From: Parachlamydiales bacterium
GTDB lineage: Bacteria > Chlamydiota > Chlamydiia > Chlamydiales > SM23-39
DNA: 64,000 bases
NCBI GenBank assembly: GCA_015661075.1
Contig: JACVQJ010000001.1
Span: forward strand, 81,347-145,346
Direction: 5' to 3'
Shown: positions 41,987-56,812 of the stretch, piece by piece
Layout of the letters: the number at the start of each line of letters is the position of its first letter
Numbering within the stretch: position 1 is the first letter of the stretch
Notes under the pieces: model-generated
The model's input: the letters and a program-made list of their open reading frames with translations, nothing else
What the model was told of the DNA's origin: nothing
Database searches by the model: none
Translations under genes and position numbers: made by a program

Positions 41987-44782
41987 TTGAGCGAATATCA
42001 CAGTAAATATTGGGCTTTCTCTTTATCTATTAAAAGCGCATCAGACAAGATCGAGAATCTTTCTCGCTCGATCGCCAATGCGAGCGTTGATCTCAATCCA
42101 CACCAAGTAAGGGCGGCCCTTTTCGCTCTCCAGTCACCTTTCCCCTTGTCTCGCGGAGTTATCCTCGCTGATGAAGTCGGCTTGGGCAAAACGATTGAAG
42201 CAGGGCTCGTCATCGCTCAACGATGGGCTGAAAAGAAACGCAAAATCCTTCTCATCGTCCCAGCCTTTCTTAGAAAGCAGTGGGAAATTGAACTACGAGA
42301 AAAATTTTACCTCACTTCTCGCATCTTAGATTCTAAAACAGCGCCTAAAAACAACCCCTTTGATAGCTCAGATGAAATCTTGATCTGCTCATATCAGTTC
42401 GCAGCTCAAAGAGCCGGTCAGTTGCCCAACCGATGGGATCTTGTCGTGATCGACGAAGCCCACCGCATGCGCAACGTTTACAAAAACTCGAATAAACAAG
42501 CCAAAGCCATTGCGGAAGCGCTTAAAGAAGCGCCTAAACTTCTTCTCACAGCCACCCCGCTCCAAAATAACCTCATGGAGCTTTACGGCCTCGTAAGCGT
42601 AATCGACCCCTACGTGTTCGGCGATGAAGCCACCTTCAAAGATCAATTCGTATCCAGAGATTTAGATGAACAGAAAAGCGCCATTCTAAAAAAGCGCCTT
42701 GAGCCTCTGATCATCCGTACCCTCCGAAAACAAGTTCAAGAATATATTCCCTTTACCAAGAGAATCCCCCTCACTCATAAGTTCATTCCGACAGATGACG
42801 AGCAACATCTGTACGAAGCCGTTTCAGCCTACCTACAAAGAAAGGATCTTGCTGCGCTTCCCAACAGTCAACGCCAGCTTATTACTCTTGTGCTGCGAAG
42901 GCTCCTTGCCTCTTCATCATTCGCCATCACAGAAACCTTGAAATCTATGATCCGCCGCCTCGAACGAGACGCGGGACCCTCCCATATTTTGGAAGAAATG
43001 GACCAAGAAATGATCGATTCCCTTGATGAAGAGGTGAGAGAACGGTTGATTGAATCCCTGCCTGATCAAGAAATGAACGCAAAAAAAGAGAAGATGCGAG
43101 AGGAGGCTCAGGAACTTAGATCTTATGTGGAGCTGGCTGAAAAAATCCGGAAAAACACAAAAGGTGAAACCCTCCTGATCGCTTTAGAAGAAGGCCTCAA
43201 AAAAGCCATCGAACTAGGAGCTGCTGGAAAAGCCGTTATTTTTACTGAATCAAGGAGAACTCAAGCTTATCTCTATGAACATCTTTCTGCAAATGGCTAC
43301 CAAGATCAAATCATCCAAATCAATGGATCAAACTCCGACGCAAAATCAAAAGCCATTTACGAAACTTGGATGAAAAAAGAGGCTAATTCCTTCCGAGCCA
43401 CCTCTAAATCAGTTGATATGAAAGCTGCTCTCGTCGACGCGTTCCGTGAACAAGGAACCATCCTTCTTGCCACTGAAGCCGCAGCAGAGGGCTTAAATCT
43501 TCAGTTTTGTTCGATCGTCGTCAATTACGACCTTCCCTGGAATCCACAACGAGTCGAACAAAGAATCGGCCGTTGTCATCGCTATGGACAAAAACATGAC
43601 GTCGTCGTCGTCAACTTCGTCAATATGGCCAACGAGGCTGATCAACGCGTCTTCGAACTCTTGAACGAAAAATTCAAACTCTTCGATGGCGTATTTGGCG
43701 CAAGCGATGAAATCCTTGGCGCGATTGTATCAGGAGTCGACATCGAACTTCGCATCCACCAGGTTTATCAAACATGCCGCTCTCCCGCCGAAATCCAGGA
43801 AGCATTCGACCGTCTTCGCCAAGAACTCGAAACGCAAATCCAGGAAAACATCCAGCAAACAAAAACGCATCTCCTCGATCACTTTGACCAAGACGTCGCC
43901 GACCTGCTGAAACTGCGAAACTCGCAAACCGAATCAACGCTTTCAAAGCGAGATCAATGGCTTTTATCCCTCCTATCACATGAGTTCGGCGTTCCCTTGC
44001 CTAAAAGCCCCGCACCATTTGCCCTGCCAGGGTCGACTCACCTTTACACGCTCAATTGGCAAGAAGCGCAAAAAACAGGCGCCCGTTTCTTACGCGAAGA
44101 CGATTTCATTATCGAATCTTCCCTTCAAAAAGCACTGAGCCATCAAACGCCACCCGCTGAACTTTGCTTTGATTACACGAAATACCCCAGTAAACTTTCC
44201 TTAATCGATCCCCTTGTTGGAAAAACAGGCTGGCTCGGCCTTTGGCTCTTTCAAGTAAAGACCTTTGAAGAAGAGCAATTCTTGCTATTCGCCGGTTACA
44301 CAGATGATAGCATTTCTCTCGACCACGAAACCTGTGAAAAACTATTCAATCTGTCTGCTAAAGCCCAACCGACTCATCTATCCCCGCCTTCCCTCGAATC
44401 GCTCCTTGCCGACAAACAAAAATCCCTCGTCTCCGACATCGAAAAAAGAGCTGGTACTCTCTTCGGAAAGGAGGTCGAAAAGCTCGATGATTGGGCAGAC
44501 GATTTCAAGGAAAGACTCGAGAAAGAAATTAAGACTCTCGATAAAGAAATCCGCGAGAAGAGGAAAGAGGCATCAAAAGCCCCAACTCTCGCAGAAAAGC
44601 TCCAAATCCAACAAACCATCAGGAATCTGGAAAAACAACGCGCCAAGAAACGCCACACGCTATTCGAAGAAGAAGATCGCATCGATGCCGAGCGCGATCA
44701 TGTGATACTGACCCACTCCCAATCCCTTCAGCCTCAACTCAGCACAACCCCCCTATTCCAGGTCCGGTTCAAAATCATATGA
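41987..44782 (+). CDS. SNF2-family helicase/ATPase
   Basis: LADEVGLGKT, DEAH, TATPLQN, NYDLPWNPQRVEQRIGRCHRYGQ; C-terminal coiled coil. Confidence 0.93.
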   Translation: MSEYHSKYWAFSLSIKSASDKIENLSRSIANASVDLNPHQVRAALFALQSPFPLSRGVILADEVGLGKTIEAGLVIAQRWAEKKRKILLIVPAFLRKQWEIELREKFYLTSRILDSKTAPKNNPFDSSDEILICSYQFAAQRAGQLPNRWDLVVIDEAHRMRNVYKNSNKQAKAIAEALKEAPKLLLTATPLQNNLMELYGLVSVIDPYVFGDEATFKDQFVSRDLDEQKSAILKKRLEPLIIRTLRKQVQEYIPFTKRIPLTHKFIPTDDEQHLYEAVSAYLQRKDLAALPNSQRQLITLVLRRLLASSSFAITETLKSMIRRLERDAGPSHILEEMDQEMIDSLDEEVRERLIESLPDQEMNAKKEKMREEAQELRSYVELAEKIRKNTKGETLLIALEEGLKKAIELGAAGKAVIFTESRRTQAYLYEHLSANGYQDQIIQINGSNSDAKSKAIYETWMKKEANSFRATSKSVDMKAALVDAFREQGTILLATEAAAEGLNLQFCSIVVNYDLPWNPQRVEQRIGRCHRYGQKHDVVVVNFVNMANEADQRVFELLNEKFKLFDGVFGASDEILGAIVSGVDIELRIHQVYQTCRSPAEIQEAFDRLRQELETQIQENIQQTKTHLLDHFDQDVADLLKLRNSQTESTLSKRDQWLLSLLSHEFGVPLPKSPAPFALPGSTHLYTLNWQEAQKTGARFLREDDFIIESSLQKALSHQTPPAELCFDYTKYPSKLSLIDPLVGKTGWLGLWLFQVKTFEEEQFLLFAGYTDDSISLDHETCEKLFNLSAKAQPTHLSPPSLESLLADKQKSLVSDIEKRAGTLFGKEVEKLDDWADDFKERLEKEIKTLDKEIREKRKEASKAPTLAEKLQIQQTIRNLEKQRAKKRHTLFEEEDRIDAERDHVILTHSQSLQPQLSTTPLFQVRFKII

Positions 44783-46419
44783 GGAAAGAGATGAAAAAAT
44801 CGCAAAAGTTAGAACTCACTTGGCCTGGCAAAGAAGATTGGGAGAAGCCGGAGCCGAGGCTGTTGTTGGAGAAAAGCTCTTACGGGACAAAGAAGGGCGC
44901 CGAAGAGAATTTGCTGATATACGGCGATAACCTATTAGGGCTGAAAGCACTTGAGAGAGATTATACTGGAAAAGTGAAGTGCGTTTGTATCGATCCGCCC
45001 TATAACACGAAAAGCTGCTTTACCCACTACGACGACTCAATGGAACATTCCATGTGGCTCAATATGATGAAAGAGCGACTTATTATTTTAAGACGACTTC
45101 TGAGAGAGGATGGGTCGATTTGGATCAATATTGATGACGGAGAGTGTCACTATTTGAAGGCATTATGCGATGAAATTTTTGGCAGAAGAAACTATATTGG
45201 CTCACTTATTTGGAAAAAAAGAAAAGGTGGAGGCAATGATTCTTCATTCTTTTCAACTGATCACGAATACGTTCTTTCCTACGTAAAGAACTCTGATAAA
45301 AAAATTCACTCAAAAAAATGGCGAACCCCTCATGAAGATAAAAACTTAAAACGCTATAAAGAAACAAACCATGACGGAAGATTATTTTATTGGGATACTT
45401 TAAATCGACAGGGATTAAAAAACCCAATCCCTATCGAACTAAAAGCTCCAGACGGGAAAATACTTAAAATACTATCTCAAAGATCTAGATACACTGTATT
45501 ATCTGAGATTAAATCAGGGGATATTCGTTTTTCAAAAACAAGTAATGGATGGAGTTTGCATCGAAAAGTTTTTCTGAATAGAGAAGGTCAAGTTCTTCGA
45601 TCTATTCTGTCTGTGGGCACTAATAGCGATGCCAAAGAGGAATTAAAAAAACTTATAAGCAAAACTCACGATTTTGAATATCCAAAACCAGAATCTTTGA
45701 TACACCAAATACTTCTCCTGACTACCACCCCAGGCGACCTCGTCCTCGACTGCTTTGCTGGCTCTGGGACGACCGGAGCAGTCGCCCACAAAATGAAGCG
45801 CCGCTGGATCATGGTCGAATTCAATGGCCCCTGCCACTCTCATATCATTCCCCGCTTGCAAAAAGTCGTCGACGGCGTAGATTTGGGCGGCATTACCGAG
45901 TCCGTAAATTGGAAAGGCGGAGGTGGCTTCCGTTACTGCGAATTAGCCCCCTCACTTTTAGAGAAAAACAAATTCAATCGATGGATGATTAGCAAAAAAT
46001 ATAACCCTGTCATGCTCATCGAGGCGATGTGTTTGCATGCGGGATACACCTTTAATCCAAAAAGAGAGCCTTGGTGGATGCACGGACAATCGACCGAAGA
46101 CGATTTCATATTCGTTACGGGTGCTACCCTAACCCGTACTCAATTACTGCAAATGAGCCAAGAGCTTGAGGACACCCAGTCTCTGCTCGTCTACTGTGGT
46201 GCCTTCAAAGCCGATCCAAAAGAATTTGAAAATCTCACCATAAAAAAAATCCCCAAATCAATCCTCAACAAATGCGAATGGGGCAGAGATGATTACAGCC
46301 TTAAAATCGCTCTTCAAGAGGAAGCAAAACAAGCAAATAAGAAAAAGCCTAAAAAACAACAAGCGACATCCAGCGATATTATCCGCATGCCTTTGGCTGC
46401 TCAGGGAGTTCGATCATGA
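44779..46419 (+). CDS. mod: Type III R-M adenine methyltransferase (Mod-like, beta class)
   Basis: GDNL, IDPPY, YPKPE, DCFAGSGTT. Confidence 0.9.
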   Translation: MRKEMKKSQKLELTWPGKEDWEKPEPRLLLEKSSYGTKKGAEENLLIYGDNLLGLKALERDYTGKVKCVCIDPPYNTKSCFTHYDDSMEHSMWLNMMKERLIILRRLLREDGSIWINIDDGECHYLKALCDEIFGRRNYIGSLIWKKRKGGGNDSSFFSTDHEYVLSYVKNSDKKIHSKKWRTPHEDKNLKRYKETNHDGRLFYWDTLNRQGLKNPIPIELKAPDGKILKILSQRSRYTVLSEIKSGDIRFSKTSNGWSLHRKVFLNREGQVLRSILSVGTNSDAKEELKKLISKTHDFEYPKPESLIHQILLLTTTPGDLVLDCFAGSGTTGAVAHKMKRRWIMVEFNGPCHSHIIPRLQKVVDGVDLGGITESVNWKGGGGFRYCELAPSLLEKNKFNRWMISKKYNPVMLIEAMCLHAGYTFNPKREPWWMHGQSTEDDFIFVTGATLTRTQLLQMSQELEDTQSLLVYCGAFKADPKEFENLTIKKIPKSILNKCEWGRDDYSLKIALQEEAKQANKKKPKKQQATSSDIIRMPLAAQGVRS

Positions 46420-48902
46420 ATACGATTAGAAAACAAATCAAAGACCGGATGAGTCTGCGGAAGCCGCAGGAAGCTTCGCTCGAATGCTTGGAACGCCTTG
46501 TCGAACTGATTCCGATGAACCCCGACAAGTGTGACCTTCAGCCGATCGAAGAACTCGTCAGACAGGCATTCCCCGAATTTGAGGCATTCGAAAGAAACTT
46601 TCCCAATGTTTGCTTTGCTTTAGCAACGGGGGTTGGAAAAACCCGCTTGATGGGAGCGATGATCGCATATTTAGCGGAAGCTAAAGGAATTCGCAATTTT
46701 GTCGTGTTAGCTCCGAATACTACGATCACGGAAAAATTAGAGCGTGAATTCCAGGCAAAAGACCCTAAATATATTTTTAAGGGACTCCCTGAGTTTGCGA
46801 ATCGAACTCCCCGGATTATAACCGGCGAAAATTACGAGGACATGTCATCCCTTCTCGCAAGGCCCGGCTCAGATGATTTTAATCCTGAGTCGATCACCGT
46901 CAGCATCTTCAACATCGCGCTGTTACATACCAAAGAGCGTAAAATACGACGTCCCAATGAAAAAATCGATAATTCTTTGAGCCCTTTTGATTATCTCGCA
47001 TCTCGGAAGGATTTGGTTGTTTTCATGGACGAAGCTCATCATTGTCGAGCCAAGGCGGGAGCAAGGACGATTGAAGAATTAAATCCCATTTTAGGAATCG
47101 AGCTAACTGCCACGCCACAAACTCAATCAAGCAAAAGCGAAATCCCTTTCCGGAACATCGTCTATCGGTTTACGTTGCCAGAGGCGCTCAAAGCTGAATA
47201 CCTGAAAAGATTGGGCATTGGGGGGCGCTCGGATTTCGATTGCTCGACTTTCTCCGACGAACGTCTGGAAAGATTGAAATTAGAAGACGGGTTGACCGTT
47301 CATCGCAATTTACAGGCTGAGCTTTGGAACTACACAAGCCAAAGAAATATTAAATCCGTTAAACCATTCGTGCTTGTGATTGCAAGGGATACAGCCCATG
47401 CCAACCAAATTGAAGAACTCATCAAAAGTCCAGTGTTTCTGGGTGGGCGCTATGCGAATAAAGTCCTAACCGTGCATTCGCAGCAAAGCGGCGAGGAAAA
47501 AGAAGAAACTGTTCGCCAGCTTCTTGCAGTCGAGTCACCTGAAAACCCGATTGAAATCGTCATTCACGTCAATATGCTTCGAGAGGGCTGGGATGTAACC
47601 AATCTCTACACAATTATCCCTTTGCGAAGAGCCAAATCTTTGACACTTATTGAACAATCACTGGGCCGAGGAGCGAGGCTCCCTTTCGGAAAACGGACAG
47701 GGGTCGACCTCATCGATAGACTATATGTTGTCTACCATGAAAACTTCCAAAAAGTTGTATCTGAAGCGGACAAATATCTCGAAGTGATGGAAAAAATAGA
47801 AATAGGCAAGTTTCCTCCTGAACCGCCTCAACCGGTTGTTGTTCATCCTGTTGGAACTCACATTATCCCTGAACCTCCCTTGAAGCCCACAGAGAATCCA
47901 CAGGAATACGAAGGATCTCCTGTCACCTCACCTCCGGAACCAGTTACGGAAGAAATGCCCCCTTTGCAACATCTCAAGATACCTCGGATTATCATTCAGC
48001 CTGATCCAAACGCAAAACAAGATAGATTTCGCTCCTTCACGCTCAATCTCCAAGGGTTCGGCCCTCAGCCGGTTGATACCCCAATCGTATTCATAGATCC
48101 TACTTCTAAAGAAAAAACAAAATTCCACTCTAGAATCTCCTCACATATCGAACAAAAACCAGAGGAGGTGATCATGAACAATTTACTCGACTACAATGGG
48201 GTGGCCGATACGGAAGAAAACGGACATGTAGCTTCCGAATTAGCAATACAGATGGTCCAGCACCTGCGCTCCTATCTTATTGAAGATATGGTAAAGCTTG
48301 TCGTCCATCAACACAGGTCGGCAATCACTGATGAAATTTACAGACAAATGCGAGAAAATGATGAGCCTGGCGAGGAAAAATGGATTCATTCAATCGGCAA
48401 GGGATTTTTAACATTTGGAAGTGCCTCTTACCTAATTGCCGCCGACCAAGGGCCGGAACATTATAGAGAACCTCTTAATGTGAGAAAAATTGAATCAATT
48501 CTTTGGTCTGGATTCCAAAAATCCCTCTATCCAATGATGAAATTTCACTCTGACGCCGAGCGGCAATTCGCCATTATGCTTGAATCTGATGAATCAGTAA
48601 TTTCTTGGGTTAAACCACCTAAGGGAAAATTTTGGATTTACTACCGAAAGGATACTCCCTACGAGCCTGATTTTGTCGTCGAGACTCGAAATGGGAAATA
48701 TCTTTGCGAAGTGAAAGATCGAACCAAAATCGAGGACGCGATCGTTAAAGAAAAAGCAAAGGCGGCTGTTTATTGGTGCCAAGCGGCAAACGAATGCACG
48801 GACAAAGAATGGAAATATCTCTTGATTCCAGATAATGCGATTACCATGGCTACGACTTTTGCAGCCTATGCCAGCCGACATGAATGGAGGGTTCGGTCAT
48901 GA
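46416..48902 (+). CDS. res: Type III R-M restriction subunit (SF2 helicase plus C-terminal PD-(D/E)XK nuclease)
   Basis: ATGVGKT, DEAH, TAT, LREGWD, QSLGRGAR, YEPDFVVE...EVK. Confidence 0.88.
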   Translation: MNTIRKQIKDRMSLRKPQEASLECLERLVELIPMNPDKCDLQPIEELVRQAFPEFEAFERNFPNVCFALATGVGKTRLMGAMIAYLAEAKGIRNFVVLAPNTTITEKLEREFQAKDPKYIFKGLPEFANRTPRIITGENYEDMSSLLARPGSDDFNPESITVSIFNIALLHTKERKIRRPNEKIDNSLSPFDYLASRKDLVVFMDEAHHCRAKAGARTIEELNPILGIELTATPQTQSSKSEIPFRNIVYRFTLPEALKAEYLKRLGIGGRSDFDCSTFSDERLERLKLEDGLTVHRNLQAELWNYTSQRNIKSVKPFVLVIARDTAHANQIEELIKSPVFLGGRYANKVLTVHSQQSGEEKEETVRQLLAVESPENPIEIVIHVNMLREGWDVTNLYTIIPLRRAKSLTLIEQSLGRGARLPFGKRTGVDLIDRLYVVYHENFQKVVSEADKYLEVMEKIEIGKFPPEPPQPVVVHPVGTHIIPEPPLKPTENPQEYEGSPVTSPPEPVTEEMPPLQHLKIPRIIIQPDPNAKQDRFRSFTLNLQGFGPQPVDTPIVFIDPTSKEKTKFHSRISSHIEQKPEEVIMNNLLDYNGVADTEENGHVASELAIQMVQHLRSYLIEDMVKLVVHQHRSAITDEIYRQMRENDEPGEEKWIHSIGKGFLTFGSASYLIAADQGPEHYREPLNVRKIESILWSGFQKSLYPMMKFHSDAERQFAIMLESDESVISWVKPPKGKFWIYYRKDTPYEPDFVVETRNGKYLCEVKDRTKIEDAIVKEKAKAAVYWCQAANECTDKEWKYLLIPDNAITMATTFAAYASRHEWRVRS

Positions 48903-49648
48903 AACCTTCTAAAGAGTCTAAGCCTGAAAAAAAATTGAAACTCAGCCGAACCAAGATCGAACTCTTTTGCGAATGCCCCCGTTGTTTCATTCTCGATCGA
49001 AAGTTCGGCATTACACGACCTGGCGGACCTCCCTTCACGCTCAATAACGCGATCGACGCCCTGTGGAAAAAGGAATTCGACCGCTATCGAATCGAACAAA
49101 AACCCCACCCTATCCTACTCCAAAACGGCTTCGATATTATCCCATTTAGGCATGAAAGCATCGACGATTGGAGAAATAATCGTCGAGGGGTCCAATTCCT
49201 GCATGAGCCTACCCAGTTTCTGGTCTACGGCGCCCCGGACGAGATTTGTATCAATGGAGACGAAGAACTCGTTGTCGTCGACGTGAAAGCTACCAGCAAG
49301 GCAACTGAGATCAATCTCGATGCTGATTGGCAAATCAGCTACAAGCGGCAAATGGAGATCTATCAATGGCTCCTTCGGCAAAATGGCTTTAAGGTCTCTA
49401 AGCGAGGCTATTTTGTCTACTGCAATGGAAAAAAGGATGAAAGCTCTTCTGGCTGCTCTCTAGCATTTGATGTTTCTGTGCTTCCATACGATGGCAACGA
49501 CTCCTGGATCGAGCCAAAAATCCTTGAAATCAAGAGCCTTATGGATACAGAACTACTTCCTGATGCAACGACCGGATGCAAGTTCTGCCATTACACCCAA
49601 GTTGCTTCTCAGTTTAGTCCAGGTAACTCGCAGAAAATCAACGCCTAA
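48899..49648 (+). CDS. PD-(D/E)XK nuclease with Cas4/AddB-like Cys arrangement
   Basis: CPRCF, GAPDE, VVDVK, QMEIY, CKFC; GGAGG RBS and ATGA overlap with res. Confidence 0.82.
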   Translation: MKPSKESKPEKKLKLSRTKIELFCECPRCFILDRKFGITRPGGPPFTLNNAIDALWKKEFDRYRIEQKPHPILLQNGFDIIPFRHESIDDWRNNRRGVQFLHEPTQFLVYGAPDEICINGDEELVVVDVKATSKATEINLDADWQISYKRQMEIYQWLLRQNGFKVSKRGYFVYCNGKKDESSSGCSLAFDVSVLPYDGNDSWIEPKILEIKSLMDTELLPDATTGCKFCHYTQVASQFSPGNSQKINA

Positions 49649-49719
49649 GATACAATCCGCATTGGATGCACCGGTCAAAACCAGGTGATTTCCCTAATGA
49701 TTTCGATATAAGGGGGAAC

Positions 49720-50286
49720 ATGGGAAAGTGGTGGCGTTATTGGAGGAACAAAGGGCACAAGGCCAAGAGCAGAGTCGAACATTACCAGTGCCTCGATTGC
49801 TCGCAATGCTACGATAAGAGGAAATATCCATTTGAAGAGGGCGAGGATGCCTGGTTTCATGGATGGCATCTGAATCTTTTCCCCTCTCATGCTCTAGCCA
49901 CATTCTCAAGCCAGGAGAAACAATTCCGCTATCCGATTCCGGTGGTTGCAACCAATTGCCATTACGGGGGACAGCGCCATTGGTTTTTGTGCCCCCTCCC
50001 CTCCTGCAAGCGTCGCAGCAAAAAGCTTTACCTCTATACCGAGGGTCTTTTTCTTTGCAGGAAATGCCTAAAACTCGCCTATTCCACTCAGAATCGCTCA
50101 GACACTGATCGAATCATAGGTAAAAAATGGGCTTTGATTCGAAAATACGGAGGCGATTCCGAATGGGACATTAAGAGACCCAAGGGAATGCATCAAAAAA
50201 CGTTCGATCGAATACGAGATAAAATCTGGCGACTGGAGGAACTGGCCATGCAGAAAATCGGAGAGGCTTTCGGTAAATTTTCGTGA
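49720..50286 (+). CDS. Zinc-ribbon hypothetical protein typical of integrative elements
   Basis: HYGGQRHWFLCP..C.RR..KLY...FLCRKC.KLAYSTQ, RPKGMH. Confidence 0.65.
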   Translation: MGKWWRYWRNKGHKAKSRVEHYQCLDCSQCYDKRKYPFEEGEDAWFHGWHLNLFPSHALATFSSQEKQFRYPIPVVATNCHYGGQRHWFLCPLPSCKRRSKKLYLYTEGLFLCRKCLKLAYSTQNRSDTDRIIGKKWALIRKYGGDSEWDIKRPKGMHQKTFDRIRDKIWRLEELAMQKIGEAFGKFS

Positions 50287-50457: not shown

Positions 50458-50768
50458 TTGTTAGAAGAGCTACTGGCAAAATCTGAAAGCAAGCCGCTTG
50501 AATTCAAAGAAAACGCCCATACCCTTTCCAAAATCGTCCAAACGATAATCGCCTTTGCCAACACTGCTGGCGCACTCTCGTTATTGGAATCCAGGATAAG
50601 AGCAAAAACGTCATCGGCATTGAGAATATCCTACAAGACGAGGAATGCATCGCGAACGCCATGACCAAACTCGGCAAGCCCGACGAGATCAATCAGCTAT
50701 TTACGGGATTCCAAAAATATCTCTATACAAACCGTGGTTTCGGCTCTCAGACACATGATAGGTCATAG
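50458..50768 (+). pseudogene. Frameshifted, truncated AlbA_2/Schlafen-domain fragment
   Basis: ESKPLEFKE...IIAFANTAG, then after a 1-nt frameshift TLVIGIQD...VIGI; truncated. Confidence 0.75.
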
Positions 50769-50838
50769 CAAATATAGAAAATATTTTGTATAGAAGGTTT
50801 TGGCTGGAACTTGTTATCCTCTCTGCAGGAGTTGGTTG

Positions 50839-51579
50839 ATGTCTGAGCATAGTTCTTATCCTAATCCTCCCATTGTCGAAGCGATTTTTGATGTCCAAAT
50901 GGAATTGCCACAAGACGTTGGGATTGCAGAACTTGAAACATTTGGTAAAACTGTCGCTTCTGACTATCCGGAAAAAAAAACACGACGCAAGTTTGCCAGC
51001 AAATTTGAGATCAAGGATGAAGAGCCCTCTGCCGAAGCTTTTAATCTAGGCATAGCAGGGATTCTTAATTGGTCACCTGATCATAGGCAGGCGCTGCAGG
51101 TTCGTTTAGACGGATTCAGCTTTTCGCGATTAAAGCCCTATGAGAAATGGGATGTACACTTTACGGAGTTCCTAAAATGTTTAAGGCTATACTGTGAGCA
51201 CATTTCTCCGATCCAAATCAAACGGGTTGCAACTAGATTCATCAACGTCATCGAACTTCCCCGTGAAAATCTGAATTGGGGGGAATATTTTATCAATGCT
51301 GCAAGAACTCCAATTCCCGATGCTGTAGCGACTAACTTCTTTGATCGCGTTGAGTTCACATTTCCCTCATCAAGCGTTAAGGCCTCCGTTACACATGCCA
51401 TGATGCAGTCAAATGACCCGCTTAAATTGCCCGTAGTTCTAGACATCGAGACATTTGTGGATATGAACAATAAACCTGATCTCATAATGATTGAAAAGCT
51501 ATTCCAAAATTTGAGAGAAACGAAAAATCAAATTTTCCAAAATAGTTTGACTGATAAAACGAAGGGGTTATTTAAATGA
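50839..51579 (+). CDS. TIGR04255-family protein
   Basis: YPNPPIVEAIFDV, FSFSRLKPYEKW, KRVATRFINVI, VLDIE, KNQIF; AGGAG RBS. Confidence 0.85.
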   Translation: MSEHSSYPNPPIVEAIFDVQMELPQDVGIAELETFGKTVASDYPEKKTRRKFASKFEIKDEEPSAEAFNLGIAGILNWSPDHRQALQVRLDGFSFSRLKPYEKWDVHFTEFLKCLRLYCEHISPIQIKRVATRFINVIELPRENLNWGEYFINAARTPIPDAVATNFFDRVEFTFPSSSVKASVTHAMMQSNDPLKLPVVLDIETFVDMNNKPDLIMIEKLFQNLRETKNQIFQNSLTDKTKGLFK

Positions 51580-52052
51580 GCCTTTTTCCGTTCTCAACTT
51601 CACAATATGCATCAGGGGTAAGTTCTACTTCTTATGATTTGGATGTGTGCGTGCAGCAACTCCGTAACCATGCTGAAGATGCAGTGCTTTTTGGATGGAA
51701 AACTCTCCTTCGTCATGATTTAATGACTGCTTATCAAGATTGTTGTGAAGAAGGATGGAATGGCTATGATGCAGAGCCTATTACCAAACAAACAATTCTT
51801 GCAGGAGAAACATTGCTGGAACTGCTCCCGGACAATGTAATGCCACCGGAAGTGTTACCGGAACCAACGGGAAAAATTAGCTTCGCATGGCGTAACGCTG
51901 CCGGAGCCACCCTTGTAATAGCTGTAGATTCTAACTCCATAGCCTTCGCAGAATTGATTGGCTCCAAGAAACGATATGGAGAAGCAAAATTTTTATCTGC
52001 GCTACCGGATGACATGAAGAAACCGCTTCTGGACTATTTTGGATGGACCTAA
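51576..52052 (+). CDS. Hypothetical protein coupled to the TIGR04255 gene
   Basis: GWNGYDAEPI, P.PEVLPEPTG.ISFAW; ATGA overlap. Confidence 0.75.
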   Translation: MSLFPFSTSQYASGVSSTSYDLDVCVQQLRNHAEDAVLFGWKTLLRHDLMTAYQDCCEEGWNGYDAEPITKQTILAGETLLELLPDNVMPPEVLPEPTGKISFAWRNAAGATLVIAVDSNSIAFAELIGSKKRYGEAKFLSALPDDMKKPLLDYFGWT

Positions 52053-52447
52053 CCACCTTGAACAGTCGTGTTGAAGATTTTGAAACCATTGCACGCTTTA
52101 TCTTTTCGAGCAGTGAGTACAGGGTTTCGGATCAAACGGTAAAACATACGGCCTTCCTGCCCGCTCGCGACATGGCTGCCTCGGTATACAGAATCGACGG
52201 CTGTTCCGAAGACGAAATCTCACAAATCGATCAAAAATATGTCTCGGGTCAAAGAACAGACAAAAAAGTTTCAAAGGGACGTGCCGATATATTGGTTAGG
52301 CAGGTGCGGAAAGCTCAACTTAATGTCATATCTAATCCATCGCCTCACCCACGTCATGCCGATATTGTGGGTTATTCATCAGAGGCCGAAAATCGGATGA
52401 AGGCCATAGAGCTTGCTCAAAATGCCGAACTTGTTCTCAAGAAATAG
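52043..52447 (+). CDS. Small protein with possible ADP-ribosyltransferase/RES-like pattern
   Basis: E.IARF...AFLP....SVYR...HPRHADIVG; overlaps the upstream gene. Confidence 0.6.
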   Translation: MDLTTLNSRVEDFETIARFIFSSSEYRVSDQTVKHTAFLPARDMAASVYRIDGCSEDEISQIDQKYVSGQRTDKKVSKGRADILVRQVRKAQLNVISNPSPHPRHADIVGYSSEAENRMKAIELAQNAELVLKK

Positions 52448-52713
52448 GGGCTTTCTCCTTTTCAAAGATCGGTGCAAGAACGGTGCCCTGACGCACTCCC
52501 ATTCCTGGTTGACGGTCCGGGGGATGACTTTGAGTCCAGCTTCATGGAAGAGCTCAACAGTAGACGCAGAAAGCAGTACGGCATCGGTGGAGGCGGTTCT
52601 GGCTCCTAGATCCGCCGCTTTATTTTATCTCAGACAGGAAACCCTGAAGAACCCTGAAGTCCAAAGCTTCAGCGTTCGCTCGTTGAAGAAGAACCGCTGT
52701 CCCAGGAGCCAAA

Positions 52714-52734
52714 TGACCACTGGATGACCACTAA
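52714..52734 (+). promoter_or_regulatory. Putative integrase arm-binding site pair (right)
   Basis: TGACCACT-GGA-TGACCACT-AA, about 110 bp before attR. Confidence 0.7.
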
Positions 52735-52845
52735 GAGCCAAAAACTGGCAACAGATGCCCTAAAATCGCAATAGATTGAAATCCCACAAGTCCCTTATAG
52801 TTTTGCTGTTAGTTAATGCGATGTGATGCCAATAAGAGGCACACC

Positions 52846-52897
52846 GCGGACTCATAACCCGTCGGTCCCTGGTTCAAGTCCAGGTTGCCCCACATTT
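52846..52897 (+). repeat. attR of island 1 (3' part of the tRNA); also the left boundary of island 2
   Basis: gcggactcataacccgtcggtccctggttcaagtccaggttgccccacattt. Confidence 0.93.
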
Positions 52898-53042: not shown

Positions 53043-53904
53043 TTGAAAACTGATAACAAAGGAAAAGCTGTGAAAGGCATTGACAAACGCATCCACAAAG
53101 ACGGGACTGTTTCTTACCGCACCCGAGTCCGCATCAAAGGACACCCAGTCCTCATCCAATCATTCGCTTCCAAAAATCTCGCCATGAAATGGAAACGCGA
53201 TACTGAATCAGCAGTTGAGCAAGGAAAATATGCATATGACCACCCCAGCAGCAAAAATACTTTAGCGGAGCTAATCGATCGCTATATTGAAAGAGTTCTT
53301 CCGTCAAAACCAAAAAATGCAAGAAACGTCCGCCAACATCTTCTCTGGTGGAAACAAGAACTGGGACGCTGCCTCCTTTCAGATATCAAGCCAAGCCTCA
53401 TCTCACAGAAACGCGATGAGCTGCTTTCAGGGCTGACTTACAAAGGCACAATCCGTTCTTTAACAACTGTCGTCCACTATCTCGCTAGCCTATCTCATGC
53501 CTTTGCGATTGGTGTTAAAGATTGGGAATGGATACAGGAAAATCCGATCATGAAAATCTAAAAGCCGAAAATTTCCAATGGAAGAACTCGCTTTCTCAAC
53601 GATGATGAAAAGGAAAGGCTGCTATCTGCCTGCCGAGAAAGCGAATCAAAAGGACTCTACCCAATTGTTATACTAGCTCTTTCAACAGGCATGAGGAGAG
53701 GAGAAATCATGAATCTCAAATGGAGCGATATAGATTTAGCCCAAGGTTCAATCCTCTTACAAACCACAAAGAATGGTGAGCGGCGTTTTATCCCTCTTGT
53801 CGGAACAGCTCTAGATCTTTTGCGTTCAAAATACGCCAATCAAACCGTTGACTCTCTCGTATTTCCCGCTCCACATTCTCCATGTAAACCTATTGACATC
53901 CGCA
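53043..53904 (+). pseudogene. Second tyrosine integrase, inactivated
   Basis: Paralog of 36624..37733; in-frame TAA at 53559-61; continues through TGMRRGE and TKNG, truncated after PIDIR with no HxxR or Tyr. Confidence 0.9.
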
Positions 53905-54030
53905 ATATCGTCATATTTAAGGACTTGTAAAGATGGGTCGAACCCTCTATACTTTCCTTGAAATTTATTGGCCCTAAATGGAAGAGAAACTTCAAGCCAC
54001 CCAAAAATCATCCTCTTGTGCCAAAATCGC
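53902..54030 (+). repeat. ~130-bp imperfect direct repeat, copy 1
   Basis: Matches 63804-63933 at roughly 85% by manual alignment. Confidence 0.85.
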
Positions 54031-56812
54031 TCTATTCCGCTCCCTTTTTCGAGGACGCGAAGATCTATATCCCCGTCGATTCGAAAGTAAAAAAACGGGA
54101 AAATCAGGCTACTCACCCGCGTGTGGTAATGAGTGGGTCCGAGGAATTTGCGAAAAGCCGAAAATCAAATGCTCTGAATGCAGACATCGCAAGCTCTTAC
54201 CCGTAGCCTACGATGTGGTACGATGGCACCTTTCCGGTCACGATGATTTTGGAAAAGATTTCGTCATGGGCATTTATCCGATGCTGCTCAACGAAACCTG
54301 CTTCTTTCTAGCTGCCGATTTTGATAAGTCCAGCTGGGAAGAGGACGCCAGGGCTTTTCTAAAAACCTGTCAAGGGTTGAACTTGCCCGCGGCTTTGGAG
54401 CGCTCCCGCTCGGGAAAGGGGGCCCATGTCTGGTTATTTTTTGCTGAAGCAATTCCAGCCATACTCGCGCGAAAATTGGGATGTCATATTCTTACTGAAA
54501 CGATGGAACATCGGCCGGATGTCGGACTTGATTCTTATGACCGATTCTTTCCCAACCAAGACACGTTGCCTCAAGGAGGATTTGGAAATCTAATTGCCCT
54601 GCCCCTACAAAAGAAAGCTCGAGATCTTGGAAATAGCGTGTTTGTGAATGAGGATTTGATCGCTTACGAGGACCAATGGGCATTTCTTTCATCTTTAGGC
54701 AAGATCCCTCGTCAGGAAGCTGAGGCAATTGTCCATCGCGCTGAAGGAAAGGGGCGTATTATTGGAACTCACCTAAGAATAGTGAGCGAAGAAGATGATC
54801 TCACCCCCTGGAACAGGCAATTCATTCCCAGCAAAATCCTTCTTCCATCTACAGATTTGCCAGAAAGTTTAGAGATCATTATTGGGAATGAAATTTACAT
54901 CCCTAAAAATGAGTTGTCTCCAGGTCTAAGAAACCGATTAATCCGTCTTGCGGCGTTTCCAAATCCCGAGTTTTATAAAGCCCAGGCAATGCGACTTCCC
55001 ACGCATGAAACACCCAGAATGATTTCTTGTGTCGCAGATTACCAAGATCACATAGGACTACCACGAGGCTGTCTTGAAGATATCTATCACTTGTTTTCAG
55101 AGTTGAAAATCAAATTAACGATTCGAAATGAGCTCCAGTCAGGGACGTTTCTCAATACAAAATTTCTAGGGGAGCTCAGAGGGGAACAAAAAACAGCTGC
55201 AGCGACCATGCTGAAAACAGATTTTGGCGTGTTGTCAGCGACTACAGCCTTCGGAAAAACTGTGATTGGTGCATGGCTTATCTCAAAACGAAAAGTAAAT
55301 ACCTTGATTCTTGTACACCGCAAGCAACTGCAAGAGCAGTGGATAGAGCGGTTATCCACATTTCTCGAATTGCCAAAAAATGCCATAGGCCGTATTGGTG
55401 GCGGGAGAAAGAAACCAACCGGGCTAATCGATATAGCAGTGATTCAGAGTCTTGTGCGTAAAAATATTGTGGATGATGTAGTCTCTCAATATGGGCATCT
55501 GATCGTTGATGAATGCCACCATTTGCCAGCGTTCAGCTTTGAGCAAGTTGCTCGCCACTCAAAAGCAAAATTCATCACAGGTTTGACCGCTACCGTAACT
55601 CGAAAGGATGGTCATCACCCGATTATCCTCATGCGATGCGGACCTGTAAGATATCGAGTCGATGCCAAAACGGCTGCCATGTTGCGCCCTTTCGAACATA
55701 CTGTTTTTGTCAGACCTACTTCTTTCGCTCCAGTGAAGCCCGCTAATGAAGATACACGCCTTCGATTCCATGATTTATATGAGGAAATCATCCGAGATGA
55801 TGAACGCAATCGGTTGATTTTTAATGATGTGGTGAGTGCAGTCCAAAGAGGCAGATCCCCCATCATACTCACTGAACGAAACGATCATCTTGATTGTTTG
55901 TTTGAAAAGCTTTCCCCTCATATCCATCATCTGATAGTGCTTCGTGGAGGCATGAGTTCAAAAGAGATCGCTCAAGCGACCAGCCGTTTAGCCACTATCC
56001 CAGCAAATGAAGCTAGAGTTCTTCTTGCGACAGGCAAATTTGTCGGCGAAGGATTTGACGATGCACGTCTAGATACTCTATTTCTTACCATGCCTATTTC
56101 ATGGAAAGGAACCATCGCACAGTATGTTGGCAGGCTCCATCGTCTGTATGCACAAAAACAAGAAGCACAGGTCTATGATTATGCAGATCTTGGCGTACCT
56201 ATGTTGGAAAGGATGTTCAATCGGCGATGCCAGGGATATGAAGCAGTGGGATATAAGATCCTTCTTCCCGCCAGCGCTATTCCTGGATGGCCAGCGGAAG
56301 TGCCTCTTCCAGTTGACCCAACCTGGAAAGCAGATTATGCGGGCAGTGTGAAAAGACTGATTCGCGACGGCGTGGACATGCCCTTGGCCCACCTTTTTGT
56401 TCAGGTCGCTTCACATTTTCCTCCTGAAGCGGAAGGAGCTGACCGCGCGCGTAGTGCAACGGAACGTTTTTTATTCCGCCGCCTAGAGACAATCGCTCAA
56501 ACAGCTGGGCAATTTCGACTGAATGCAGGACTTGATATTCCTTTCGATGGGTGGGGCCAAATGGAAGTAGATCTGCTCTGTATGAATGCTCATCTTGCGA
56601 TTGAACTTGATGGCGCCCAGCATCTTGGCAATGCTGAGGCCTATCGCCGAGACCGGCGCAAAGATGCTTTGTTACAGGAAAATGGCTATACAGTTTTGCG
56701 ATTCTTAAGCGAAGATGTCGGCAAACATCTCGATGATGTCCTGGATTCAATTCTTCGCACCATAAGCCACTTGAGAAAGCGTGAGACAAGAGAAGACCTA
56801 CATTCGCAATAG
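53978..56812 (+). CDS. TOTE-type AEP primase-like domain + SF2 helicase + DUF559/Vsr-like endonuclease fusion
   Basis: LFRGRED.Y, AADFD, ERSRSGKGAHVW, GNLIALP; TAFGKT, DECH, TAT, QYVGR; VDL..LAIELDG.QH...DRRKD.LLQENGY.VLRF. Confidence 0.85.
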   Translation: MEEKLQATQKSSSCAKIALFRSLFRGREDLYPRRFESKKTGKSGYSPACGNEWVRGICEKPKIKCSECRHRKLLPVAYDVVRWHLSGHDDFGKDFVMGIYPMLLNETCFFLAADFDKSSWEEDARAFLKTCQGLNLPAALERSRSGKGAHVWLFFAEAIPAILARKLGCHILTETMEHRPDVGLDSYDRFFPNQDTLPQGGFGNLIALPLQKKARDLGNSVFVNEDLIAYEDQWAFLSSLGKIPRQEAEAIVHRAEGKGRIIGTHLRIVSEEDDLTPWNRQFIPSKILLPSTDLPESLEIIIGNEIYIPKNELSPGLRNRLIRLAAFPNPEFYKAQAMRLPTHETPRMISCVADYQDHIGLPRGCLEDIYHLFSELKIKLTIRNELQSGTFLNTKFLGELRGEQKTAAATMLKTDFGVLSATTAFGKTVIGAWLISKRKVNTLILVHRKQLQEQWIERLSTFLELPKNAIGRIGGGRKKPTGLIDIAVIQSLVRKNIVDDVVSQYGHLIVDECHHLPAFSFEQVARHSKAKFITGLTATVTRKDGHHPIILMRCGPVRYRVDAKTAAMLRPFEHTVFVRPTSFAPVKPANEDTRLRFHDLYEEIIRDDERNRLIFNDVVSAVQRGRSPIILTERNDHLDCLFEKLSPHIHHLIVLRGGMSSKEIAQATSRLATIPANEARVLLATGKFVGEGFDDARLDTLFLTMPISWKGTIAQYVGRLHRLYAQKQEAQVYDYADLGVPMLERMFNRRCQGYEAVGYKILLPASAIPGWPAEVPLPVDPTWKADYAGSVKRLIRDGVDMPLAHLFVQVASHFPPEAEGADRARSATERFLFRRLETIAQTAGQFRLNAGLDIPFDGWGQMEVDLLCMNAHLAIELDGAQHLGNAEAYRRDRRKDALLQENGYTVLRFLSEDVGKHLDDVLDSILRTISHLRKRETREDLHSQ

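Follow-up and report, generated by a model that had tools for sequence, protein, structure and literature searches.

Tripartite toxin–antitoxin (TA) systems of the toxin–antitoxin–chaperone (TAC) type have been exemplified by CmdTAC, in which, as laid out in the available text, the exotoxin A-like toxin CmdT has an H-Y-[EDQ] triad, the antitoxin CmdA has its unstructured part at the C-terminus and CmdC is a SecB homologue, with the SecB-like chaperones of TAC systems recurring with several toxin families (PMC11618068). Equally, ADP-ribosyltransferases (ARTs) have, in the part of the source at hand, been sorted by active site into the three clades H-H-h, H-Y-[EDQ] and R-S-E (PMC9503650). PADLOC moreover holds the candidate PDC-M32, composed of two genes, A of ~375 and B of ~90–130 residues, which in the accessible text of one paper is named merely within lists of PADLOC hits (PMC12429752), no other paper naming it having been found. 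The locus addressed here lies in a stretch of 64,000 nucleotides (nt), hereafter the window, from a Parachlamydiales bacterium (positions 81,347 to 145,346 of contig JACVQJ010000001.1, assembly GCA_015661075.1), and consists of three genes, g1, g2 and g3, of which g1 belongs to TIGR04255, a family for which no paper using this name or IPR026349 was found in the literature. With slightly more confidence than doubt, the trio can be read as a self-contained, horizontally mobile tripartite TA-like module with a putative ART-fold toxin (g3), a putative antitoxin (g2) and a TIGR04255 accessory that would act on the antitoxin.

The original prediction, made from the DNA letters of the window, had placed three intact overlapping genes at the right end of an island, and this architecture is borne out. 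The open reading frames (ORFs) are present (Table 1), with overlaps of 4 nt between g1 and g2 and of 10 nt between g2 and g3, an alternative TTG start of g1 can be found at 50800, and the trio is the last coding unit of a 16.4-kb, integrase-bearing island delimited by a tRNA-Met gene and 52-nt direct repeats. Membership of g1 in TIGR04255, equally claimed beforehand, holds over nearly the entire NCBIfam profile (E 2e-30, 106.5 bits at a cut-off of 30, profile positions 2–251 of 252). Two metatranscriptome runs contain near-identical contig pieces over 50859–51151 and 51931–52262, pieces of a kind that does not show transcription, and a scan for promoters and terminators was uninformative (2 promoter-like sites versus 4.0 expected, 0 terminators versus 3.0 expected).

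Table 1. Coordinates (window numbering) of the three-gene cassette and of the elements that define its island.
Feature	Position	Strand	Remark
Cassette extent	50771-52486	+	95-99% identical contigs of another DNA data set (run X4)
g1	50839-51579	+	246 residues from ATG; TIGR04255 family; proposed accessory (third) component
g2	51576-52052	+	158 residues; proposed antitoxin
g3	52043-52447	+	134 residues; minimal ART-fold protein (predicted); proposed toxin
Shine-Dalgarno-like GGAG	50828-50831	+	7 nt 5' of the g1 ATG at 50839; read from sequence
tRNA-Met	36422-36496	+	left island end; feature with left repeat spans 36422-36500
52-nt direct repeat, left copy	36449-36500	+	98% identical to right copy
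52-nt direct repeat, right copy (tRNA 3' fragment)	52846-52897	+	399 nt past g3 stop
Integrase	36624-37733		inside tRNA-Met island

Conservation of the trio as a unit, which the original prediction had put forward for examination of the neighbourhood, has been observed in a scan with one genome per species that yielded 42 g3 loci from Nitrospirales, Desulfobacterales, Neomarinimicrobiota, Brocadiales, Hyphomicrobium, Burkholderiales, Thiotrichales, Bacteroidota and others. A g2 homologue lies directly upstream of g3 in 40 of these loci, and a TIGR04255 gene directly upstream of g2 in 25 (split in L041; two confirmed by NCBIfam), while four loci (L027, L037, L042, L043) are short or degraded. 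Chance ORFs are ruled out because the synteny is conserved in other genomes. The small g2 and g3 genes, with their overlap and their pairing in nearly all loci, have the gene layout of a type II TA system.

The main support for the assignment of g2 and g3 comes from the company that TIGR04255 keeps elsewhere. After the window locus and 15 further loci from the family to which the window's genome belongs (12 with ORFs of ~330 and ~160 residues and three unlisted) had been left out, 48 TIGR04255 loci were analysed; the 43 from two phylum samples were counted, and not L074–L078, the genomes of which had been picked for holding g3. Two tightly linked downstream genes follow in 31 of the 43 loci, and the pairs are diverse: g2-like plus g3-like proteins (8 loci), a helix-turn-helix (HTH)-bearing protein of ~200 residues plus a protein of 179–300 residues without family (8), two proteins without family of 108–129 and ~200 residues (5, plus 1 partial), a ~150-residue protein without family plus a PtuB-like HNH nuclease (4), a 95-residue protein plus a PemK/MazF toxin (E 1e-18; 1), a weakly TacA-like protein (E 1e-3) plus a GNAT acetyltransferase (1), a g2-like plus another protein (1) and other pairs without family (3). 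Looser arrangements occur in 2 loci, a single HTH-like gene in 3, and 6 loci have no tightly linked downstream gene. Where the parts of these TIGR04255-led operons are recognisable, the second gene is antitoxin-like (small and TacA-like or HTH-bearing, other second genes having no family) and the third encodes the toxin (MazF, GNAT or HNH), and because of these positions g2 is taken as the probable antitoxin and g3 as the probable toxin, in agreement with the roles first proposed for them. As an observation in its own right, the two recurrent operon types with a third gene without family, of 179–300 residues (L088, L098, L102, L055, L061, L063, L066, L070) or ~200 residues (L085, L089, L094, L097, L100), present candidates for new toxins, if the positional logic holds.

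The g3 protein had been characterised by an R...AF...SV...H pattern, and the quoted strings (IARF at 16–19, AFLP at 37–40, SVYR at 47–50 and RHADI at 104–108) indeed coincide with the most conserved columns of the family. Among 151 representatives, conservation amounts to H105 in 151, S47 in 150, P40 in 149, L93 in 148, F38 in 143, R18 in 141, A106 in 139, R80 in 137, E14 in 134, R50 in 133, H102 in 124 and D82 in 123; at position 49, Y (94) prevails over F (47), and position 107 is occupied by N or D. The family is large: a word-indexed search gave 18 g3 relatives, and a profile search among 1.84 billion cluster representatives at 50% identity gave 2597 at E<=1e-3, of which 1484 also pass E<=1e-10; the 150 that were listed are almost all free-standing proteins of ~100–190 residues. 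No consistent Pfam family was found across 143 scanned members.

An AlphaFold2 model of g3 from a 16-row alignment has a predicted local distance difference test (pLDDT) value of 93.7 and a predicted template modelling score of 0.87. In VIA, an exhaustive structure search not dependent on Foldseek, the best 50 rows include 47 that are Tpt1/KptA, toxins that ADP-ribosylate or use nicotinamide adenine dinucleotide (NAD), or ART-like proteins, some of which we take to be ART-like; ranks 34, 42 and 49 clearly are not. The top Z-scores are those of KptA (7.3), AvrPphF ORF2 (6.5), mouse Tpt1 (6.2), Tse2 (6.0) and CopC (5.2), followed by DarT, a Vibrio toxin, Tne2, Scabin, PltA, pertussis toxin, RES, Arr, ParT, MbcT and others, with RES, ParT, MbcT and DarT at Z 3.2–4.6. 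In a second VIA look, NAD lobes of KptA/Tpt1 occupied 7 of the top 9 rows (Z 7.0–7.6, root mean square deviation (rmsd) 2.7–4.0 A, 92–100 residues), headed by a KptA NAD lobe (Z 7.6, rmsd 2.7 A, 92 residues aligned, chain residues ~86–180). Because the VIA list is near-uniformly ART-type, the ART-type fold that had been proposed is predicted for g3 with high confidence on the strength of this model. By strand order, not superposition, R18, S47 and H105 map to beta1, beta2 and the start of beta5, respectively, the three places at which the ART clades carry their pattern residues; His occupies the R18 column in only 3 of the 151 representatives, and the start of beta5, where His105 lies, has no conserved acidic or Gln residue. 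This R18/S47/H105 set matches none of the three clade patterns as given in the accessible text (PMC9503650).

On the g1 side, the AlphaFold2 model (23 rows, pLDDT 89.2) is predicted to consist of two tandem strand-helix-four-strand-helix repeats, each in the order S1-H1-S2-S3-S4-S5-H2, which together form one long sheet of TBP-like, alpha+beta character. Foldseek relates this model to AdoMetDC, RepDE and TBP (E between 9e-5 and 1e-2, TM-scores low), and VIA to the catalytic domains of arginine, taurocyamine and creatine kinases and of the protein arginine kinase McsB (Z 8.0–9.5, 173–187 of 246 residues, model range 4–244), with further matches to AdoMetDC (~8), the spermine synthase N-domain (7.7–8.8), RepDE (7.4), Mediator Med18/20 (7.5) and TBP (6.7–6.8, 150–155 residues aligned). 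A SecB-like nature of g1, which the original prediction had put up for comparison, has been dropped as a working idea, with no Pfam SecB match at E<=1 and no SecB chain among the 50 rows listed in each of three g1 fold searches, an absence that does not exclude the fold. A protein atlas search with g1 returned only TIGR04255 clusters and no model among them. The residues P11, E14, P44, Y101, W104, F107, R133, Y/F134, N136 and F233 are kept in >=70% of 61 diverse TIGR04255 proteins, with the window protein having His in column 107 and another 14 of the 61 having Asp in column 136; in the g1 family alignment, the (near-)invariant charged residues E14, D18, R129, R133, N136, R170 and D202 lie on the sheet. 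Sampling of 401 genomes in each of two phyla, the window's own and a second one, showed the family in 43 and 32 genomes, respectively.

The protein encoded by g2 combines, in an alignment of 37 sequences, a conserved C-terminal domain of ~105 residues (~55–158) with a variable N-terminal region (~1–50 in the window protein) that ranges from ~50 to ~130 residues across the alignment and varies equally in sequence. Conserved positions are W61 and G63 (W61-x-G63), P91, G99, E104, W105, A125, G129 and G135. A word-indexed search yielded 11 g2 relatives including the window protein, 4 of them on contigs sized like those of g3 relatives. Sequence searches against solved structures with g1, g2, g3 and the g1 and g2 family profiles returned only chance-level rows (best E 0.014). 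A complex prediction for g1 and g3 with g2 as partner gave values of 0.85, 0.85 and 0.84, with the partner replaced 0.00 and 0.00 and with g1 replaced 0.85, and speaks neither for nor against binding.

The cassette behaves as a mobile unit. Contigs of the X4 data set that match it are unlike the window beyond both ends, over 26 letters before the left border and 156 behind the right one, so that the shared copy begins 68 nt before g1 and ends 39 nt after g3. Because identity stops at both ends, the trio travels as one unit together with these short flanks. The distribution of g3 is sporadic across phyla: it is present in 1 of 101 genomes, consisting of the window's genome and 100 relatives, the one being the window's genome itself, and the whole trio can also be found in two genomes of the same order (L048, L052). 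A tblastn search with g3 gave no match in plasmid or phage collections.

Integrating these observations, g3 would be a minimal ART-fold enzyme with the unusual R18/S47/H105 set which, when free, might use or destroy NAD+ and thereby poison the cell. The g2 protein would act as its cognate antitoxin, with the conserved C-terminal domain binding and neutralising g3, and g1 would act on this antitoxin, most likely via the variable N-terminal extension, to control the release of the toxin in response to a putative trigger. In function, g1 might thus be analogous to the TAC chaperone, but with a fold predicted to be unrelated and with the genes arranged as accessory-antitoxin-toxin. The role of the cassette is likely abortive-infection defence and/or island stabilisation, because it ends a tRNA-Met island full of restriction and helicase genes, the content of which includes, besides the integrase, a DUF927 protein, an SNF2 helicase, an N6/N4 DNA methylase, a ResIII-endonuclease protein and a PD-(D/E)XK nuclease. 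A broader version of this reading, possible although rather doubtful, takes TIGR04255 as an unrecognised, widespread adaptor that turns TA pairs of various kinds (ART-like, MazF, GNAT/TacT-like, HNH and others) into three-part systems via antitoxin N-terminal extensions, as a SecB analogue on an unrelated fold and possibly as a phage sensor; g3 would then found a fourth ART active-site type (R-S-H) with a new chemistry or target.

Several observations weigh against the TA-like reading. A TIGR04255 gene is not obligatory: 13 of the 42 g3 loci (L002, L003, L005, L007, L010–L012, L015–L018, L020, L021) have another first gene, of 238–250 residues in 5 and 219 in 8, which is not TIGR04255 by NCBIfam (hhalign probability 4%), and the g2 proteins of these loci are longer (190–239 residues) with a much longer N-terminal region; the two alternative first-gene families may be alternative accessory proteins of the same toxin pair. 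Many of the 42 loci stem from related Nitrospirales or Desulfobacterales genomes, so that the counts are not independent. Neither g2 nor g3 has a Pfam or NCBIfam match at E<=1, and PHROGs gives no match for these two nor for g1. For the g3 model, Foldseek finds nothing at E<=1e-3 in PDB or BFVD (the best PDB TM-scores nevertheless being those of KptA, 0.50, AvrPphF, 0.40, and a RES toxin, 0.35), and all its fold Z-scores stay below 8, in the range where the tool warns of a mere common arrangement. His105 replaces the catalytic Glu/Asp/Gln of ARTs, and as the g3 family fits none of the three ART clades, it might not transfer ADP-ribose at all. Equally, TIGR04255 occurs outside any TA-like setting. 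A second copy in the same genome (contig C8, 8341–9132; L115, 1842–2633) lies between tgt (queuine tRNA-ribosyltransferase) and malate dehydrogenase, and in 12 family-level relatives a TIGR04255 gene directly precedes, often with overlap, the ORFs of ~330 and ~160 residues, which Pfam identifies as malate dehydrogenase and citrate synthase in 3 of 3 loci tested; with such neighbours, part of the family is thus at home in a housekeeping setting. PDC-M32 is itself no more than a candidate, and the whole reading is built on predictions and comparison, from which we infer toxicity, NAD use, binding and phage defence.

Three other explanations can account for parts of these data. The pair g2–g3 might be an ordinary type II TA system with g1 as a transcriptional regulator, the TBP-like saddle of which binds the promoter DNA of the operon, an organisation with precedents in logic and gene order in the regulator-antitoxin-toxin systems omega-epsilon-zeta and paaR-paaA-parE. 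This would be in line with the tandem repeat order of g1 and its matches to TBP and to the DNA-binding initiator RepDE, with its place as first operon gene in every TIGR04255 class and with the conservation of E14, R133, N/D136, Y101, W104 and F233 in the 61 proteins whatever pair follows, as fits a generic ligand such as DNA. However, several proteins in the antitoxin position already contain an HTH themselves (HTH_3 in L088), the TBP matches are weaker than those to guanidino kinases, and the copy next to malate dehydrogenase ill fits a dedicated TA repressor, so that this explanation is considered unlikely. The guanidino-kinase matches, which are the best full-length fold matches of g1, might instead indicate an enzyme or a sensor of small molecules or nucleotides with a guanidino-kinase/glutamine-synthetase-like fold, which would control the pair by covalent modification or metabolite sensing and not by chaperoning, and the charged residues on the sheet, of which E14, R133 and N/D136 persist across the 61 diverse members, are compatible with such a function. 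An identity of 5–11%, Z-scores barely above the tool's background of 7–8, no kinase family match by sequence and the absence from g1 of the N-terminal helical domain of phosphagen kinases nevertheless make this improbable.

The remaining explanation leaves the poison–antidote logic altogether in that g3 would be a benign NAD-dependent enzyme akin to the NAD lobe of Tpt1/KptA, which processes nucleic-acid ends or modifies small molecules, with g1 and g2 as specificity or substrate-binding subunits. That the nearest structures of g3 are precisely these lobes speaks for it, as does the absence from g3 of the acidic active-site residue typically seen in ART toxins that modify macromolecules, a further point at the expense of the TA-like reading; the H-H-h clade is, in the part of the source at hand, associated mainly with RNA repair, small-molecule modification and soluble ADP-ribose derivatives (PMC9503650). 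On the other hand, g3 has R and S in place of the H-H of the KptA clade, it lies in a mobile island among restriction-type genes with a sporadic distribution across phyla, and the same operon slot elsewhere holds MazF, GNAT and HNH toxins, and little credence is given to a benign role. The tripartite TA-like module, with g3 as toxin, g2 as antitoxin and g1 as accessory, is retained as the favoured reading.

If this reading is true, TIGR04255 would receive its first role, and a second class of third TA component, structurally unrelated to the SecB-like chaperones, would stand beside these with a comparative set of swappable toxin pairs. Equally, a large family, the 2597 representatives mentioned above without a Pfam, NCBIfam or PHROGs model, would be flagged as a minimal ART fold with an atypical R/S/H set and thus be a candidate for new NAD-dependent chemistry.

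Further features can be seen around the cassette. A cluster of restriction or defence type occupies 41987–49648 of the island, with four successively overlapping genes for an SNF2 helicase, an N6/N4 DNA methylase, a ResIII helicase with a TnsA-like/RE endonuclease domain and a PD-(D/E)XK (Cas4-like) nuclease. The stretch that separates this nuclease from the cassette contains a Cys/His-rich ORF of 206 residues (49666–50286) with no Pfam or PHROGs match and an ORF of 68 residues (50458–50664) that matches the first 32 positions only of the Schlafen AlbA_2 domain (E 1e-4, below cut-off) and probably represents what remains of a truncated gene immediately before the left cassette border. A 58-nt direct repeat of 71% identity (36567–36624 and 52713–52770; starting ATGACCACTGG-TGACCACTAA) has one copy just within the left end of the island, ahead of the integrase, and the other just before the right tRNA-fragment repeat, and these copies may be integrase arm sites or the relic of tandem islands. 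Past the right island repeat, an integrase split into at least two ORFs (53043–53930) and a 944-residue TOTE-type AEP primase-helicase-DUF559 protein (53978–56812) together give the impression of another island, now decayed, that was inserted in tandem at this tRNA site.

Among catalogued entities, PDC-M32 comes nearest to the trio, which by sequence comparison appears not to be wholly uncatalogued, though matched only weakly; this weak kinship to a defence candidate counts on the side of the TA-like reading. PDC-M32A resembles the C-terminal domain of g2 (positions 271–341 of 375 for the window protein, E 7e-5; positions ~264–367 of 375, E 7e-5 to 1e-2, across all matches), and PDC-M32B resembles g3 (positions 53–114 of 123 for the window protein, E 3e-3; positions 7–114 of 123, E 5e-9, for one family representative). 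The matches are weak, however, PDC-M32A is covered in its last quarter only, and the present cassette comprises three genes, not two, the additional g1 matching no PADLOC model at E<=1. A search for a true PDC-M32A in 251 genomes gave weak C-terminal or stray matches only, and fused forms of g2 were not found among proteins of 420–2000 residues, the size range searched, outside which ~375 residues fall.

With RES-Xre (MbcTA), ParST and DarTG the trio shares a small, in g3 predicted, ART-fold toxin beside an antitoxin gene. This likeness is one of fold class only, as RES, ParT and DarT have no sequence-level match to g3 and differ in conserved residues, while g2 is by sequence neither an Xre/DUF2384 protein as in RES-Xre nor a macrodomain as in DarTG, and the trio has an extra first gene. 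The C-terminal NAD+ lobe of Tpt1/KptA, the best structural match of g3 (Z 7.6, rmsd 2.7–3.4 A over 92–93 residues), is 6–10% identical; g3 differs from it by having no N-terminal nucleic-acid-binding lobe, by a mobile, TA-like context and by R/S/H in place of H-H-h, the latter as given in the accessible text (PMC9503650).

The parallel to CmdTAC, from which the original prediction had started, stands in its three-part logic and in the predicted ART fold of g3. In both cases, as far as the available text on CmdTAC describes it, three genes are involved: the ART-fold toxin and an antitoxin, the variable extension of which is probably unstructured, are accompanied by a third protein, which in TAC systems as in TIGR04255-led operons recurs with different toxin families (PMC11618068). 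Neither a likeness of g3 to CmdT itself nor a CmdA-type C-terminal tail in g2 is supported. Measured against the same text, the exotoxin A-like H-Y-[EDQ] toxin is replaced by an R/S/H protein resembling the KptA NAD lobe, the C-terminal unstructured region of the antitoxin by an N-terminal variable part, and the SecB homologue by a TIGR04255 protein with a TBP-like/guanidino-kinase-like model and no SecB sequence match (PMC11618068); the gene order accessory-antitoxin-toxin differs equally from that of CmdTAC. Taken together, these comparisons suggest that the trio might be a variant of the tripartite TA systems with new parts, namely a putative role for TIGR04255 and a predicted ART-fold family with an R/S/H set.

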